Positions 23,607-31,508 of a DNA stretch of 64,000 bases are shown here, one piece after another; within the stretch, counting starts at the first letter, position 1; every line of letters begins with the position of its first letter. The position numbers and the translations under genes were made by a program. The notes beneath the pieces were generated by a model, which was not told where the DNA came from, ran no database searches, and saw nothing but the letters and a program-made list of their open reading frames with translations. Origin of the DNA: an uncultured Gammaproteobacteria bacterium (lineage in GTDB: Bacteria > Patescibacteriota > Patescibacteriia > UBA1558 > S5-K13). The DNA lies in contig CAYRHT010000002.1 in the NCBI GenBank assembly GCA_964424195.1, positions 80,120 through 144,119 on the forward strand. The letters are read 5' to 3'.

Positions 23607-26600
23607 TTATCTATTCAAAGCTCCTCTAGTCTGAGGACCTACATAACCAACTTGCATGATATCATTAGCTTTTTGGAAGTCTTTTACTGCTTGAGCAGTA
23701 ATAGGTCCAAAATAACCAGTAATATATTCATATGTAAAGTATCCTAGAGCTTTAAGCTTAGTTTGTAATTGTCTTACTTCTTCACTAGTTATTCCAATGT
23801 TTAAGAAACTAGTAAAAATATGATCATTGTTAGTTGTACTTATCTCTTCTTTTTTTACAGATACATCTTCTCCATCTGAATAAGTGATACTACTATCAAT
23901 AACTTGAATATCGTTCCAATTATAGTTAAAGCTATTAAAAGTAGCTTCATCTTTAATCCATCGTTTAGTATTGTCTTCTAAGAGATATACTTTAGGACTA
24001 TTTGGATATTTGAATAAAGTGTAAATAACTGTTTCTGGTATTACATTATCTTCATTTAGATTTTTCACTGTGATTTCTGCTCTATTAACTACAACATCTT
24101 CAAACTTAACTTCTAAATCATTAATACCATCATTATCTAAATCTACATACTTAATTTCATCCAAAGTTAATGTTAAAGTAATTGGATTAGAATGAATAGT
24201 AATAGTTACTATGTTATGAAAGAGGTCTAAGTTAGTGATATTTAAACTATGATTTTGACTAACACTAGTTCCATAATTACTAACTTCAGTATCAAAACTA
24301 GCTGTAGAATTAATATACATTAATAGATTATTTCCAGTAGAACTTACATTGCCTACTTCTCCACTTTGATTCATCCCAACACTAGTATCTGCTGTTCCAG
24401 TCCCTACTGCAGGTGCTGGAGCAGAAGCTCCTCCACCGCCGGAAGTATCATTATCAGTAATTGTAACTGTAATATCAGTTAAACTATATCCATCATAGTT
24501 TGTATCATCACTAGCCGCTGTATGAGTTATTGTTCCAGAATGTGAATCATCTTCATCAGTAGTATCATCAACAGCTGTAATAGTTACTGTTTGCACTGTG
24601 TCCCAGTTAGCAGAAGTGAAGGTAAGAGTAGTTGGACTAACTGTAGATTGACTATCTGGTGTAACCGTAACTACTACATCATCGGTCGGTTCAGAATCTA
24701 AAACTAAAGTATAGGTATCAGTTGTTCCATCTTCAGTGACTGTAGCTGTAGTTTCAGATTGAGTCATTCCAGCCGTATCATTATCAGTAACATTAGCACT
24801 AACACTACTAATGGTAATTCCATCATAACTAGTATCACTACTAGCTGCTGTATGAGTAATAGTAGAAGTATGTGAAGCATCTTCATCTATATCATCATTA
24901 GTAGCTGTAACAGTTACAGTCTGAGCATCTGACCAATCCCCGGTAGTAAAGGTTAAAGTAGAAGAATCAACACTTGATTGTGAATCAACGCTAACTGTAA
25001 TTACCACACTAGCAGTTGGTAGATGATCTAAAACAACAGTATATGTATCGGTTGTTCCAGCTTCCGTTAAATCAGTTGAACTAGAAGATTCAGTGACAGT
25101 AACTCCATCTTCATAGACATATGCTCCTAAATCCCAAGTAACTCTAGTTGTTGTTGCTGGTCCTGGCCAAGTAGCTGCTTTCTCAATACCTAATTCATAT
25201 GTTGAACCTAAAGTAGTTGTTCCTACTCCAATAGCTGGTGATCCAGTCTGAAGAAAGAAATTCAAAGTTGAAGTTGATACAAATAGTGGATCTGCTTCAA
25301 TACTATTTGTAGCATCACTAGTTAATGTTTGCCAAGCTGAAATGGTATTATTATTTGTATTATTATATTTTAAATTAATGTCTCCGCTCTGAGTATAAAA
25401 ACTATTATTGTCATTAGAAAATCCTGAAGTACTATATTCACCAACATTAATAGAATAAAAAGTAGTTGTAGTTGGAGTTATACCGTATATAATATTATTA
25501 TATACTGAACAATTGGTGGAGGCTGTGGCTGTGGCTTCTTCATTATGATATCTTACATCAACACCAAAAGAATGTTCTGCTGTATCAATAGCATTATAAA
25601 TAGTATTATTAACAACATCTACTCCTCCCATTCCTTTCATCACAATTCCAGCAATATTATTATTATAAAGAATATTGTTATATACTCCACCACTAGTATA
25701 CTGCATGGTATTGTTAGATTTTACAATTATTCCATAACCACCACCAGCAACAAAATTATGCTCTATTTGAGCGTTAATATTATATCCTACAATTATATTA
25801 TGAGTAGAATGATTTAATATACTATCATCCCAATAAGCAGCTCCTAATACTTTATTACCGGTAATTATTGCTCCATCTAATTTATTCATTACTCCAATAG
25901 CAGGAGTAGCATCATGACCAACACTTAATATATACCCACCTAAACTTTTACTATTAAAAGTGTTATTAGTTATAGTTGGAGTACCGGCAGTTGATCCTAT
26001 TAGCGGAACCATCTGTATATGAGTATAATTGTCTTCAGTTTCAGTAGTAAAAGTATTATTATTAAAGGTGGAATCATAAGAATCATTCATAAAAAATAAA
26101 TGTTTATCAGCAATTTGACTTGCACTTGAAAGAGTAAAAGTATTATCGCTAATATTTGCACTGTAATTACCAAGAATTTCAAAAAAATGATCAGATGGGG
26201 CAATGCTAGTTGTAATAGTATTACTAGTTAAAGTTAGAGTTCCACCATCAGAAGTTGGTGGAATAACTATCAAATTAGTTAAAGATGTAGCTGGAGTTAT
26301 TGTGTTATCAGTAACATTAAGAGTTATATCACTATCTACATTAAAAACCGCTATAACAGCAGTAGGATTAATTGTGTTATCATCAACAGTCATCGTAGTA
26401 CCGCTCCCCTTAATATTGAAAATATATGAACTAGGATTTACATCTAATGTTGAAGTGGTCATGTTAAAATCGCTATAAATCTGGAAAGTAGCAGCCCCAC
26501 CACCAGTAACAGTAGCGTTATCTATAACTAAAGAAGCACTAGTTGAGAAAGTATAGATACCATAGGTAGATGAATCAAAGATAAAATTACAATCATTAAA

Positions 26601-27047
26601 AGTATAAGTTCCAGTAGCATCATTATGAGTATAAATACCATGAGTAATAGTGCCTACTTCATTAACATCAAAAGTAAAACCAGTAAAGCTAATATCCTGA
26701 CTTGAATTTCTAATATAGATAATATATTTACTTGAAGCATTGGCTTGTACAATAACTTCTCCACTAGCAATCCAAGTAATACCTTTAGCTGGATTCATAT
26801 AAATACCACCATATTCACTAGCTCCTATTTCTTCATAAGTACCAGCATTAACGTAAACAGTATCTCCATTAGCTGCTTGAGTATGAGCAGATTGCATAGT
26901 TAACCAAGCATTTCCAGCACCAGCACTAGTTCCAGCATTACCATCATTTCCAAGTTTATCAACATAATAAGTGGCAGCATAAATTTTCGGAGCAAATACA
27001 AAGATTCCTAGAATGATTAAGAAGGAAATTAGTAGATATTTTTTCAT
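23607..27047 (-). CDS. Large secreted cell-surface protein with a right-handed parallel beta-helix (pectin-lyase-like) region, tandem Thr/Asp-rich repeat domains, and a C-terminal peptidoglycan-binding domain
   Basis: 1146 aa. Signal peptide MKKYLLISFLIILGIFVFAPKIYA. Repeated NxTIxxN/beta-helix turns. Two tandem ~105-aa repeats. The C-terminus LQTKLKALGYFTYEYITGYFGPITAQAVKDFQKANDIMQVGYVGPQTRGAL matches PG_binding_1-type domains. Confidence 0.75.
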   Translation of the reverse strand: MKKYLLISFLIILGIFVFAPKIYAATYYVDKLGNDGNAGTSAGAGNAWLTMQSAHTQAANGDTVYVNAGTYEEIGASEYGGIYMNPAKGITWIASGEVIVQANASSKYIIYIRNSSQDISFTGFTFDVNEVGTITHGIYTHNDATGTYTFNDCNFIFDSSTYGIYTFSTSASLVIDNATVTGGGAATFQIYSDFNMTTSTLDVNPSSYIFNIKGSGTTMTVDDNTINPTAVIAVFNVDSDITLNVTDNTITPATSLTNLIVIPPTSDGGTLTLTSNTITTSIAPSDHFFEILGNYSANISDNTFTLSSASQIADKHLFFMNDSYDSTFNNNTFTTETEDNYTHIQMVPLIGSTAGTPTITNNTFNSKSLGGYILSVGHDATPAIGVMNKLDGAIITGNKVLGAAYWDDSILNHSTHNIIVGYNINAQIEHNFVAGGGYGIIVKSNNTMQYTSGGVYNNILYNNNIAGIVMKGMGGVDVVNNTIYNAIDTAEHSFGVDVRYHNEEATATASTNCSVYNNIIYGITPTTTTFYSINVGEYSTSGFSNDNNSFYTQSGDINLKYNNTNNNTISAWQTLTSDATNSIEADPLFVSTSTLNFFLQTGSPAIGVGTTTLGSTYELGIEKAATWPGPATTTRVTWDLGAYVYEDGVTVTESSSSTDLTEAGTTDTYTVVLDHLPTASVVITVSVDSQSSVDSSTLTFTTGDWSDAQTVTVTATNDDIDEDASHTSTITHTAASSDTSYDGITISSVSANVTDNDTAGMTQSETTATVTEDGTTDTYTLVLDSEPTDDVVVTVTPDSQSTVSPTTLTFTSANWDTVQTVTITAVDDTTDEDDSHSGTITHTAASDDTNYDGYSLTDITVTITDNDTSGGGGASAPAPAVGTGTADTSVGMNQSGEVGNVSSTGNNLLMYINSTASFDTEVSNYGTSVSQNHSLNITNLDLFHNIVTITIHSNPITLTLTLDEIKYVDLDNDGINDLEVKFEDVVVNRAEITVKNLNEDNVIPETVIYTLFKYPNSPKVYLLEDNTKRWIKDEATFNSFNYNWNDIQVIDSSITYSDGEDVSVKKEEISTTNNDHIFTSFLNIGITSEEVRQLQTKLKALGYFTYEYITGYFGPITAQAVKDFQKANDIMQVGYVGPQTRGALNR
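24456..25085 (-). repeat. Two tandem ~315-bp intragenic repeats encoding ~105-aa Thr/Asp-rich (Calx-beta/cadherin-like?) domains
   Basis: Protein repeats TEAGTTDTYTVVLDHLPTASVVITVSVDSQSSVDSSTLTFTTGDWSDAQTVTVTATNDDIDEDASHTSTITHTAASSDTSYDG and TEDGTTDTYTLVLDSEPTDDVVVTVTPDSQSTVSPTTLTFTSANWDTVQTVTITAVDDTTDEDDSHSGTITHTAASDDTNYDG. The boundaries are approximate. Confidence 0.65.
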
Positions 27048-28115: not shown

Positions 28116-28220
28116 AAGTTTAGGTATTAAATTATAACAAAAAGTGTAGATTTTCTAATTTATCTACTGTTTTTAGTATAGCAGATTTGCTCTTCAAAAC
28201 AAGTTTAAATTAGCTTACTT

Positions 28221-28231
28221 TTAGGGTATAA
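28221..28231 (+). promoter_or_regulatory. Candidate extended -10 element (TAGGGTATAAT) immediately upstream of the radical-SAM-like gene
   Basis: TATAAT at 28226-28231 lies only 7 nt before the ATG at 28239. No SD sequence is present, so a leaderless transcript is possible. Confidence 0.25.
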
Positions 28232-28238
28232 TATAGAT

Positions 28239-29261
28239 ATGCAAGAAGCATTATTGTATCAAAAAAATAAGAAGAATAAGATAGATTGTAGATTATGCAA
28301 TCGTTTTTGTAATATTTCATTAAATGAAACTGGTTCTTGTGGAGTCAGGAAAAATATAGCTGGTAAATTATATGCTTTGAATTACAATCGACTTCTTACT
28401 CAAGAAGTTGATCCAATTGAAAAGAGAGCTCTTTTTCACTTCTTGCCAGGCACTCTAACTCACTCTATTTCAGCTATGGGTTGTAATTTAAAGAACGATA
28501 GTTGCCAGAATTGGCAGATTTCTAAATTACAAAATATTGAGAAATTAGATGATAAATTTCCAGGGGAAGAAATTAAAGCTGAAGAAATTATTGAAAGAGC
28601 TCAAAAGAATAATTGTTCATCAATTTCTTATGCTTTTACAGAACCAACAGTATTCTTGGAAACTGCTTTACCAATCATGAAATTAGCTCATCAACATCAA
28701 TTAAAGAATGTTTGGATTTCTAATGGTTATATGACTAAAGAATGTTTAGATTTAATCCTCCCCTATTTAGATGCTGTTAATATTGATTTAAAATTCTTTT
28801 CAGATAAGAAGTACCAGAAAGTGTTGGGTGGATCTTTGGACCCTATTTTAGATAATCTAATTTATTTAAAAAAGAATAACATTTTTCTAGAACTAAGTAC
28901 TATTTTAATTCCTGGAAAAACAAATACTAAGAAACAATTATCAGGTATTACTAAATTTATTGTAGATCAGTTAGGAGATGATACTCCTTGGCATATTTCT
29001 AAATCTTCTTTTAAGTCTTCATTTAAATTCTTCTCTAAAAGAGCTATTTCTGACAAGGAGTTAGAAAAAGCCTATCAAATTGGTAAAGATGCTGGTTTAA
29101 AATATATTTATTTAGGAAATATAGCTACTGATGATCGAGAAAATACCTATTGTCCAGAATGTGAAGCTTTGAATATTGAGAGACAAGGTCGTGTGATTAC
29201 TCGTGATGATCAAAATGGTCTATGTCAGAATTGTAAACAAAGTTTAAATATAATAACTTAA
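28239..29261 (+). CDS. AmmeMemoRadiSam-type (PflA-like) radical SAM enzyme homologue with a degenerate cysteine motif
   Basis: 340 aa. N-terminal Cys cluster CRLCNRFCNISLNETGSCGVRKN, then DPIEKRALFHFLPG and GCNLKNDSCQNWQIS. The canonical CxxxCxxC has its middle Cys replaced by Asn (codon AAC). Confidence 0.55.
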   Translation: MQEALLYQKNKKNKIDCRLCNRFCNISLNETGSCGVRKNIAGKLYALNYNRLLTQEVDPIEKRALFHFLPGTLTHSISAMGCNLKNDSCQNWQISKLQNIEKLDDKFPGEEIKAEEIIERAQKNNCSSISYAFTEPTVFLETALPIMKLAHQHQLKNVWISNGYMTKECLDLILPYLDAVNIDLKFFSDKKYQKVLGGSLDPILDNLIYLKKNNIFLELSTILIPGKTNTKKQLSGITKFIVDQLGDDTPWHISKSSFKSSFKFFSKRAISDKELEKAYQIGKDAGLKYIYLGNIATDDRENTYCPECEALNIERQGRVITRDDQNGLCQNCKQSLNIIT

Positions 29262-29264
29262 TTT

Positions 29265-30692
29265 ATGAAAAAGTTTTTAACTCTACTTATTATCTGTTCT
29301 ATTCTAATACCTAATTTCAGTTTTGCTGATCAAGAGTTAGATGTAAATTTTAATCCTAACTATATTATTTCTGATTTTGAGCTGGAAGATTATAACTCTA
29401 TGAGTTTAAATGATATTCAATACTTCTTAAATAGACATAGTGGTCTTTTAAAACAATATGTGACAAACAATACTCAGACTGGAGAAATAATGACTGCTAG
29501 TGAAATTATCTATCAAGCAGCGCAAACATACAGAATAAATCCTAAATATCTTTTAACTCTATTACAAAAAGAACAAAGCTTAATTATTAATCCTCAGCCA
29601 ATGACTAAAGCTTTAGATTGGGCTATGGGTTATGCAATTTGTGATGATTGTGATATGAATGATCCTTATCTACAGAAGTATAAGGGATTTTACAATCAAG
29701 TAATTTCAGCAGCTCAAAGAAATAGATTTTATTTAGAAAACACAGATAAAGCTTGGCTTTTTCAAGCTGGTGAAGAATATAATATAGATGGTCAATCAGT
29801 AATTCCTTTTAATAAAGCTACAGCTGCTATGTATAGCTATACTCCTCACATTCATGGTACATATAATGCTTGGAAGATTTGGAATAAATGGTTTACTAGA
29901 AAGTATCCTAATGGTTCTATTCTGAAAGAAGTTAGGTCTGCGGGAGTTTGGTTAATTAAAGATAATAAAAGATGGCCTTTCATAACTTGGACAGCTTTTA
30001 CTAGTAGATATAATTCTCGAGATATTATTGAAGTTAATTATAGTGATTTAGCTAAATACCCTCTAGGAAACTCCATTAAATTTACTAATTATTCATATTT
30101 AAAAACTCCAGATCAAAAGACTTATCTATTAGACAATGATCAGCTCAAAGCTTTTGCTAATGATGAAGTTGTGCGTTACTTTGGAGTAAATCCTGAAGAA
30201 GTAATTAATATTGAATGGGAAGATTATCGTTACTATACTCAAGGAGAAGATATTACTATGAACAGTATGTATCCTAATGGTGCAGTTTTGAAGGATCAAG
30301 ACACAGAAGATATCTATTATGTTAAGAATGGAGTTAAATCATTAATAAGTAATCAAAAAATATTAGAAGTAAATTATCCTAATCAATATCTTGTTAAAGT
30401 TTCTAGTGAAGAATTAGATAATTTAGAAGATAGTGACTTAGTTAAATTTAAAGACGGTACTCTAATTAAATCTCAAGACAGTCCTGCCGTTTACATAGTT
30501 TCTGATGGAGAAAGAAGAGCTATTGTTAGTGGTCAGGTTTTTGAAGATTTAGAATATTCTTGGTCAGATATTATTGAAGTAGATGAAAGTATTGTAAATA
30601 TTCATAAACTTGGTAATCTACTTGATGAACAGGAAGAAGAAATTAATATTGAAGAATTAATGCCGACTGATGAAACCAGTCAACCATTATAA
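29265..30692 (+). CDS. Secreted hypothetical protein
   Basis: 475 aa. Signal peptide MKKFLTLLIICSILIPNFSFA. Rich in W/Y/N. No recognisable family. It starts 4 nt after the radical-SAM-like gene. Confidence 0.45.
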   Translation: MKKFLTLLIICSILIPNFSFADQELDVNFNPNYIISDFELEDYNSMSLNDIQYFLNRHSGLLKQYVTNNTQTGEIMTASEIIYQAAQTYRINPKYLLTLLQKEQSLIINPQPMTKALDWAMGYAICDDCDMNDPYLQKYKGFYNQVISAAQRNRFYLENTDKAWLFQAGEEYNIDGQSVIPFNKATAAMYSYTPHIHGTYNAWKIWNKWFTRKYPNGSILKEVRSAGVWLIKDNKRWPFITWTAFTSRYNSRDIIEVNYSDLAKYPLGNSIKFTNYSYLKTPDQKTYLLDNDQLKAFANDEVVRYFGVNPEEVINIEWEDYRYYTQGEDITMNSMYPNGAVLKDQDTEDIYYVKNGVKSLISNQKILEVNYPNQYLVKVSSEELDNLEDSDLVKFKDGTLIKSQDSPAVYIVSDGERRAIVSGQVFEDLEYSWSDIIEVDESIVNIHKLGNLLDEQEEEINIEELMPTDETSQPL

Positions 30693-30698
30693 AAAACT

Positions 30699-31508
30699 AT
30701 GAGTAATATTTATCCATTTTTCATACCCCATAATCCTCTAATGATTTCTAAAATTGGAGTGGAACATTCTGAAAAACTTTCTACCTCTATTAAAGCTTTG
30801 AAGGATATTAAAAACAGGATTTATGAAATAAATCCTGATAAGATTTTAGTTATCACTCCTCCCTTTCAAGACTTAAATAATATTGTTATTAATCAAAGTG
30901 AAAAGTATTTAATTAACTTTAAATCTTTTGGAGATTTATCTTTAGAGTTTGAAGCTCCGGGAGATTTAGATTATAGTACTAGATTCAGAGACTTCTTAAG
31001 AAAGAATGATTTTAATGTAAATATGTTTTCAGAAGAAAAAGTTAATCATAAAGCTTTTGTTCCTTTCTATTATTTAAATAAATATCATACTTCTTCTAAG
31101 GGTTTTGAAAATGAATTAGTTCATGATTCATCTATTAAGAATGAGTTTATGGTTTTAAACTCTTCTCAAGCAGATTTAAATTATCATTGGGAGTTTGGAA
31201 AACTATTAGCTGATTTCTTATCTGATAAGAAAGAAGATATTGTAATTATAGCTACTAGTGATCTATTAGGTAGAGTTAAAAAGCAAGAAGAATACTTAGA
31301 AATAGCTCAAGAGATTATTGATTTAATTAAATTAGGAAAATATGAAGAGATTATTGGATTAGAAGAGAAATTAAAAAAAGGCTCTTATCCAGGGATTAAG
31401 CCTTTAATGATTATTGCACCATTGATTTCTAAATTAAACTTAAACTCAAATATATTATCTTTAGATAAGGAGTTTGGAGAAATATATCTAACAACAGAAT
31501 TTAAATAG
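30699..31508 (+). CDS. Memo/LigB-like (class III extradiol dioxygenase fold) protein, probably catalytically degenerate
   Basis: 269 aa. The N-terminus YPFFIPHNPLMI ... PDKILVITPPFQ parallels the (V/I)PHAGY ... vvilgPsH pattern of Memo/DODA-type proteins, but the second His position is substituted. Confidence 0.35.
   Translation: MSNIYPFFIPHNPLMISKIGVEHSEKLSTSIKALKDIKNRIYEINPDKILVITPPFQDLNNIVINQSEKYLINFKSFGDLSLEFEAPGDLDYSTRFRDFLRKNDFNVNMFSEEKVNHKAFVPFYYLNKYHTSSKGFENELVHDSSIKNEFMVLNSSQADLNYHWEFGKLLADFLSDKKEDIVIIATSDLLGRVKKQEEYLEIAQEIIDLIKLGKYEEIIGLEEKLKKGSYPGIKPLMIIAPLISKLNLNSNILSLDKEFGEIYLTTEFK

Follow-up and report, generated by a model that had tools for sequence, protein, structure and literature searches.

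A TIGR04337-family radical SAM protein without its middle cluster cysteine: a lineage-specific, degenerate form of a known system in Patescibacteria

This report concerns a three-gene unit within a 64 kb stretch of DNA (29% GC), hereafter the window, whose first gene encodes a radical S-adenosylmethionine (SAM) protein, or rSAM, of the TIGR04337 family that has lost the middle cysteine of its cluster-binding motif; the unit represents a known system, the AmmeMemoRadiSam type, in a lineage-specific degenerate form. Judged from the sequences, the locus is probably a variant of that system that degenerated stepwise in this lineage, and the system has most likely been caught part-way through decay rather than being a new kind of system. 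The three co-directional genes lie on the + strand and encode the rSAM (28239-29261, an open reading frame (ORF) of 340 amino acids (aa)), a secreted protein referred to here as mid (29265-30692, 475 aa) and a LigB-like protein (30699-31508, 269 aa). These ORF coordinates match exactly the three-gene unit at 28239-31508 that had been delimited in an earlier reading of this DNA (the original prediction), in which the intergenic gaps were given as 4 and 7 nt; the actual counts are 3 and 6 nt.

The rSAM scores 278.7 bits on TIGR04337 (cutoff 220) over residues 7-336, in agreement with the AmmeMemoRadiSam-type identity proposed originally, and PflA-type activases match it far more weakly. Its degenerate cluster loop, C82-N-L-K-N86-D-S-C89 (GCNLKNDSCQNW; 28482..28505, + strand), stands in the context G-C82-N-L-K-N86-D-S-C89-Q-N-W and is encoded by TGT AAT TTA AAG AAC GAT AGT TGC, the AAC codon of N86 occupying 28494-28496. 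Both the sequence and the alignment bear out the predicted replacement of the middle Cys of CxxxCxxC by Asn. Position 86 is Cys in 119/119 homologues, the closest aligned homologues (24/24) all read GCN[FL]xCxNCQNW, and the canonical CxxxCxxC is present in all 203 other homologues, that is, in 119 database matches and 84 other rSAM loci, two sets that may overlap. The change is not confined to the ligand itself: relatives read C-N-F-H-C-L-N-C, and in the window FHCLN has become LKNDS, with 10 of the 15 loop nucleotides differing from those of the relative L001. Because five consecutive residues have been replaced, the whole loop appears to have lost constraint, as opposed to a single ligand having been swapped.

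An alternative Cys that might complete a [4Fe-4S] site, which the original prediction had itself named as a point that could count against it, was looked for in the alignment and is excluded: the window rSAM has gained no new Cys, and its other invariant Cys residues are all kept. These include the N-terminal Cys4 motif (C17, C20, C24 and C34; 28287..28340, + strand), which is Cys in 119/119 homologues, and the family-invariant C-terminal CX2C...CX2C (C305, C308, C329 and C332; 29151..29234, + strand). SAM-binding elements E135-P136, S161-N162-G163 and D183/K185 are likewise kept. The sole newly gained potential ligand near the loop is H75, which arose through the window-specific change Y75H; D87 is already common among canonical family members. 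At E<=0.1, Pfam Radical_SAM (PF04055) finds no match in the window rSAM, while homologues at 72-74% identity carry precomputed PF04055 matches. This match has been lost only in the window protein; even P0272, a family member deficient in two cluster Cys, scores 49.9 bits.

Over 10.8 kb, the window matches a 952 kb metagenome contig from the Joint Genome Institute (JGI) at 100% identity, and the exact LigB-like protein is indexed on 7 contigs of 0.2-1 Mb, namely the 952 kb contig and six further ones. Additionally, a 7.5 kb contig from a different sample carries the same rSAM loop and differs by a single-nucleotide polymorphism (SNP) across 6.8 kb. Because the same sequence recurs in independent metagenome assemblies, and with 10 of 15 nucleotides changed in frame and no indel, a sequencing, assembly or frameshift artefact as the source of the motif change is scarcely conceivable, and assembly error is ruled out by the identical independent contigs. 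The lone SNP, a G to T change at window position 28578, is nonsynonymous (A114S in the rSAM); as one event it is non-significant, and it is compatible with relaxed constraint on the protein.

Such relaxation is evident in several comparisons, from which constraint on the rSAM appears to be clearly relaxed, not abolished. Among 24 clade members, the window rSAM deviates at 21 of the 172 columns conserved at >=90%, and relatives at no more than 6; a leave-one-out recount puts its deviations at 24 among 175 clade-conserved positions (1-9 in relatives), and in a 120-sequence set it deviates at 9 of the 93 columns conserved at >=95% (relatives <=5). The changes cluster in four places: K63R/P64A in EKKPFFH, C86N/N88S in the loop, T132A/Y133F in the GGE-like YTYTEPT, and F256S/E259K/I260S/L264F/L265F after PWHISKF. 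The ratio of nonsynonymous to synonymous divergence (dN/dS) between the window and L001 is 0.227 for the rSAM, the highest among seven syntenic genes (0.08-0.19). With L002 as the outgroup, branch dN of the rSAM is about 0.118 for the window vs 0.064 for L001. Tajima's relative-rate test counts 46 vs 25 unique substitutions (p=0.013); for six neighbour genes pooled, the counts are 110 vs 92 (p=0.21).

Variation in the cluster motif is also found elsewhere in the family. Degenerate-motif full-length variants recur, as is shown by P0272 (L090:150-1160), a second, independent family member that reads G-S-N-F-S-C-E-Y-G-L-N-W (GSNFSCEYGLNW) at the motif, has lost the first and third cluster Cys and keeps all eight auxiliary Cys; its contig is 1.6 kb long. 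In a separate group of nine TIGR04337-family rSAMs of about 710-811 aa (P0270, P0315, P0324, P0338, P0349, P0355, P0372, P0388 and P0408), an intein with a LAGLIDADG homing-endonuclease domain lies exactly inside CX3CX2C (…GCNFACKN / C…intein…VGN / CQNW), its identity confirmed by Pfam Intein_splicing and LAGLIDADG_3 matches. Since the intein interrupts the motif at this point, the third cluster Cys is the +1 extein residue.

The product of the third gene matches Pfam LigB (PF02900) at 56.9 bits (cutoff 26.3), and neither it nor its counterpart in L001 has a match to TIGR04336 or Pfam Memo (PF01875). Membership of Memo (TIGR04336) was accordingly rejected, the fold also lying nearer LigB/DODA: with the AlphaFold2 (AF2) model (pLDDT 89.2, pTM 0.90), Foldseek returned template modelling (TM) scores of 0.70-0.79 to 2-aminophenol 1,6-dioxygenase (APD), DesB, DODA, TK2203 and LigB, and a more distant 0.60 to MEMO1. 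Searches of PDB sequences with the protein, as a single query or a profile, gave nothing significant. Relative to the intact Patescibacteria partners (L010, L019, L025, L067, L087, L088 and P0149), one of five catalytic or metal motifs is kept, and this holds throughout the clade of at least 26 sequences to which the window protein belongs. The PH of PHPP is retained (H11 in the window), SPHG has given way to TPP, DHG to N-[HYS]-K (N-H-K in the window), SGDLSH to CGDLLG (TSDLLG in the window) and GECG to SYPG. The original prediction had described a Memo/DODA-like protein without its second conserved His. A degenerate member of the LigB/Memo superfamily it is, and the His site of SPHG is indeed gone, but the protein is not a Memo, and with DHG, SGDLSH and GECG also lost the damage far exceeds one His; of the metal ligands, only PH is left.

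Loss of these motifs was accompanied in the clade by the appearance of a ~20-residue insertion with new invariants Y124, L126, N127, H130, S133 and G135. Specific to the window lineage are C186T and G187S, by which the near-invariant A-C-G-D-L of the clade became A-T-S-D-L (31251..31265, + strand). The gene has a dN/dS of 0.19 (window vs L001), and its product is presumably a pseudo-dioxygenase kept for a binding or scaffold role. In L001-L004 the degenerate LigB-like protein is paired, in synteny, with a canonical rSAM; because its degeneration is clade-wide and these rSAMs are intact, it predates the loss in the rSAM. The question of whether homologues share the substitutions, raised with the original prediction, thus has two answers: for the LigB-like protein they do so clade-wide, and the rSAM Cys loss is confined to the window species. 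As to the start of the gene, the public JGI call begins at an internal Met (255 aa; the difference spans 30699-30741), and the family alignment favours the upstream ATG at 30699 (269 aa), by which the invariant P10-H11-x-P13 is included. In two other Patescibacteria lineages, catalytic motifs of the LigB-type partner have been lost independently: the protein of L016 (5651-6463) reads DYS / SANFCN, and that of L089 (7430-8200) reads TPKR / DSC / LGDMSR / LQNYS.

To place the unit among its relatives, 80 loci from GTDB were annotated with hidden Markov models (HMMs) built from in-house alignments; in the GTDB scan, the best match among those listed had 50% identity, and the close clade was not among them. 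The classical rSAM-Memo/LigB-AMMECR1 arrangement was found in L009, L019, L025, L030, L037 and L067, and Memo-AMMECR1 fusions in L007 and L014. A jackhmmer search seeded with the AMMECR1 domain of P0149 detected no AMMECR1 (PF01871/TIGR04335) among ORFs of >=70 aa in the window; the same search finds it in 11 other loci. In L010, L011 and L016, a mid gene is followed directly by a LigB-type gene. The order in L010 is rSAM-mid-LigB, with AMMECR1 ~0.8 kb downstream, and its parts all score above curated cutoffs (TIGR04336, 38.5 bits against 26; TIGR04335, 141.8 against 99). On TIGR04336, the intact Patescibacteria partner in L025 scores 49 bits, and L037 scores 249.9 bits. Distant mid homologues in L087, L088 and L089 each have a LigB/Memo gene 2-20 nt downstream; of these loci, L087 has an rSAM 3 kb upstream, and L088 and L089 have none within 6 kb.

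Wherever downstream sequence is available (9 lineages, the window among them), a LigB-type gene comes directly after mid, with or without an rSAM or AMMECR1 nearby, and no description of this linkage was found in the searchable literature. Because mid regularly precedes the LigB-type gene as its partner throughout Patescibacteria, it is not a substitute for AMMECR1. The proposal that AMMECR1 had been replaced by the 475-aa secreted protein therefore fails, being ruled out both by the general pairing and by the co-occurrence of mid with a bona fide AMMECR1 in L010.

Secretion of mid, also part of the original prediction, is upheld by a signal-like helix at the N terminus (MKKFLTLLIICSILIPNFSFA; about aa 1-21 as signal peptide) that both the sequence and the AF2 model (pLDDT 89) show; in the model, a helical domain comes next, and then four repeats of ~60 residues that are rich in beta structure. 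In the structure prediction that had been proposed for this protein, about aa 30-212 make up an N-terminal domain resembling lysozyme/GH73, and about aa 215-455 make up the four repeats of ~60 aa each, which are EccB/PlyCB-like. Foldseek relates the former to the GH73 autolysins AtlE, Acp, LytB and SagB, with probabilities of 0.9-1.0 and TMt of only 0.35-0.48, and the repeats to EccB at E 1e-7. The protein has no match in Pfam or NCBIfam (Glucosaminidase and EccB included), and PDB sequence searches, single or profile, returned nothing significant. A segment Q101-K-E103-Q-S105 is invariant in 55 mid sequences, and E103 is a candidate catalytic Glu. Homologues number at least 790, essentially all in Patescibacteria; in P0259, P0264 and P0268 they are fused C-terminally to Peptidase_S11 (D-Ala-D-Ala carboxypeptidase), an arrangement that speaks for a role connected with peptidoglycan. 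Conservation of the window copy is normal (4 deviations vs up to 7 in relatives), and the protein is predicted from the model to be an intact secreted peptidoglycan-hydrolase-like protein, untouched by the decay of its neighbours.

Under the stepwise decay favoured here, the locus would be the local form of a Patescibacteria arrangement in which an rSAM is followed by a secreted cell-wall protein and then by the LigB-type 'protein B' of the system. The first step would be represented by the lack of an adjacent AMMECR1 (in the window, and within +/-6 kb in relatives). In a second step, the LigB-type protein of the clade ancestor would have lost four of five catalytic or metal motifs, staying under purifying selection and gaining the clade-specific insertion with its new invariants. 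The third step, limited to the window species, would be loss of the middle Cys of the rSAM through rewriting of the whole loop, after which constraint would have relaxed specifically at the active-site elements (the loop, EKKPFFH, the GGE-like YTYTEPT and FSPEISFK), with the rSAM fold, both CX2C-type Cys4 sites and the ORF preserved through the decay. Members of the radical SAM superfamily require three Cys to hold the site-differentiated [4Fe-4S] cluster at which SAM is bound and cleaved; since this set is incomplete, the window rSAM would be incapable of radical chemistry. Most likely, then, it is radical-dead and under relaxed, not absent, selection, so that the non-catalytic state, which the original prediction had put forward as a possibility, becomes the most likely reading in view of the lost Cys and metal motifs. 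The protein would be a relic whose inactivation is recent or else a subunit without catalytic function. Some retained role can be argued from a dN/dS of ~0.23 and the preserved Cys4 sites; an excess of substitutions focused on the active site is to be expected on either view.

Several considerations weigh against decay as the explanation. The function of the system is not established, so that 'inactive' cannot be tied to a phenotype, and Fe-S clusters with non-Cys ligands exist in other proteins. The search that found no AMMECR1 covered the 64 kb window (+/-6 kb in relatives) of a ~0.95 Mb genome, elsewhere in which AMMECR1 or another, intact rSAM paralogue may be encoded. In addition, stop codons arise easily in an AT-rich genome (29% GC), yet the ORF of 340 codons is intact; this and a dN/dS of ~0.23 argue that the rSAM is not drifting freely and that some function may persist. 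It is conceivable, if rather unlikely, that selection maintains the rSAM and the metal-less LigB homologue in a non-catalytic role, such as a ligand-binding complex or control of the co-transcribed secreted wall hydrolase, and that the two are not bound for deletion. Consistent with such retention are the intact ORFs with dN/dS of 0.19-0.23, the 8/8 auxiliary Cys kept in the rSAM, the new invariant residues and insertion of the LigB-like clade, the mid-LigB pairing seen throughout Patescibacteria with and without a neighbouring rSAM, the independent full-length variant P0272, and the independent origin of degenerate LigB partners in L016 and L089. However, the excess of conserved-site substitutions and the rate asymmetry would follow just as well from a recent loss of function, an interaction between the two proteins is conjecture, and the rSAM change is found in one species only. 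A more specific proposal, for which we see little likelihood, is that the rSAM without its cluster and the LigB homologue without its metal have taken on a new role as a cytoplasmic pseudoenzyme pair acting with the secreted GH73-like/EccB-repeat wall hydrolase. We consider it very improbable that the window rSAM is still active, with its [4Fe-4S] cluster completed by a non-canonical ligand such as His75, Asp87 or Asn86. Two of the three loop Cys do remain, Y75H is a window-specific gain near the loop, the SAM-binding elements are kept, and the non-Cys ligation mentioned above offers a general precedent; but the replacement of five consecutive loop residues, among them the near-invariant N88, points to lost constraint and not to a precise swap, D87 is already common in canonical members, substitutions in the active-site motifs are about five-fold in excess, and we know of no rSAM with a CX3NX2C site.

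Comparison with characterized families supports the placement of the unit and delineates its peculiarities. The Memo/AMMECR1/rSAM system is widespread in archaea and many bacteria, and Memo and AMMECR1 occur also in eukaryotes; to our knowledge, no function has been demonstrated for it. Memo contexts have reportedly been linked to nucleotide-base and isoprenoid modification in a 2019 JBC survey by Burroughs et al. AMMECR1 has long been noted beside an rSAM enzyme and a ring-opening dioxygenase, and was predicted to act in an uncharacterised RNA base modification (Aravind and colleagues, PMC2034487). Our literature searches found no functional study of the AmmeMemoRadiSam or AMMECR1 system. Like AmmeMemoRadiSam (TIGR04337 + TIGR04336 + TIGR04335), the full triad of which is carried by the relatives L010, L025, L030 and L067, the window has an rSAM above the TIGR04337 cutoff and a third gene whose product is in the same LigB/Memo superfamily as protein B. 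Unlike that system, its rSAM is without the middle Cys of CX3CX2C, its protein B is LigB-type with no TIGR04336 score and a lost metal site, the 64 kb hold no AMMECR1, and a gene for a secreted wall protein is intercalated.

The closest solved structure to the window rSAM by sequence profile is PflA (PDB 3c8f, E 3.3e-7), with which it shares a partial-barrel rSAM core; in contrast, PflA has an intact CX3CX2C and is without the N- and C-terminal Cys4 modules, and its substrate is a glycyl-radical enzyme, none of which lies near the window rSAM. The top Foldseek match of the LigB-like protein is AmnA, the alpha subunit of 2-aminophenol 1,6-dioxygenase (PDB 3vsg chain A; E 1.9e-15, TM 0.70), which we take to be a non-catalytic LigB-fold subunit that lost its catalytic iron site, and a metal-less LigB-fold partner would therefore have precedent. 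Yet AmnA has an active beta subunit as its partner, the window gene is not adjoined by any active LigB paralogue, and identity is only 14%. MEMO1 (PDB 3bcz and 7kq8) has the same superfamily fold (TM 0.60), whereas the LigB-like protein is nearer LigB, DODA and TK2203 and is without the His/Cys metal ligands of MEMO1. For mid, the N-terminal domain superposes on the catalytic domains of GH73 N-acetylglucosaminidases (S. aureus AtlE, 4pi7; C. perfringens Acp; pneumococcal LytB; SagB), and the C-terminal repeats match the repeat domains of EccB, a type VII secretion protein, at the E value given above; global TM scores are low, the domain arrangement differs from both, and neither Pfam family is matched.

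Taken alone, one degenerate orthologue from a single uncultivated species has modest significance. The window rSAM is nonetheless a natural, population-confirmed knock-out of the cluster site, and together with its intact orthologues (72-74% identity) it could serve as one half of a matched active/inactive pair for biochemistry; the locus also illustrates that, in such a system, catalytic residues can disappear from one partner earlier than from another without loss of the genes. More useful than the degenerate rSAM is the robust and apparently undescribed linkage, in Patescibacteria, of the LigB-type partner with a secreted peptidoglycan-hydrolase-like protein, which provides a testable, envelope-related lead on the function of the system. 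If the notion of a pseudoenzyme pair were true, the mid-LigB pairing would place the Memo/AMMECR1/rSAM system at the cell envelope, with a target such as an isoprenoid carrier lipid or a peptidoglycan precursor.

Around the unit, the best promoter-like site, TTTAAA-17-TATAAT (28204..28232, + strand), matches at 10/12 positions and ends 6 nt before the rSAM ATG; it is weak evidence, promoter-like sites in this AT-rich region (23 seen vs 23.1 expected from shuffles) being no more frequent than chance. No intrinsic-terminator-like site was found on the + strand within the three genes, and the LigB-like gene shares 8 nt with a glycosyltransferase gene that converges on it. The 64 kb window contains no tRNA genes and no Rfam family at its gathering threshold. 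Homology with L001 begins at 28220; L001 has a 220-aa ORF between its MscS and rSAM genes, to which nothing in the window corresponds. Upstream in the window, 23607-27047 (- strand) encodes a predicted surface protein of 1146 aa with a C-terminal PG_binding_1 domain, whose repeats match the mid-protein HMM (3e-08). This gene sits between the GT4 and MscS genes, and because these two adjoin in L001, it is likely to be an insertion or a lineage-specific acquisition.

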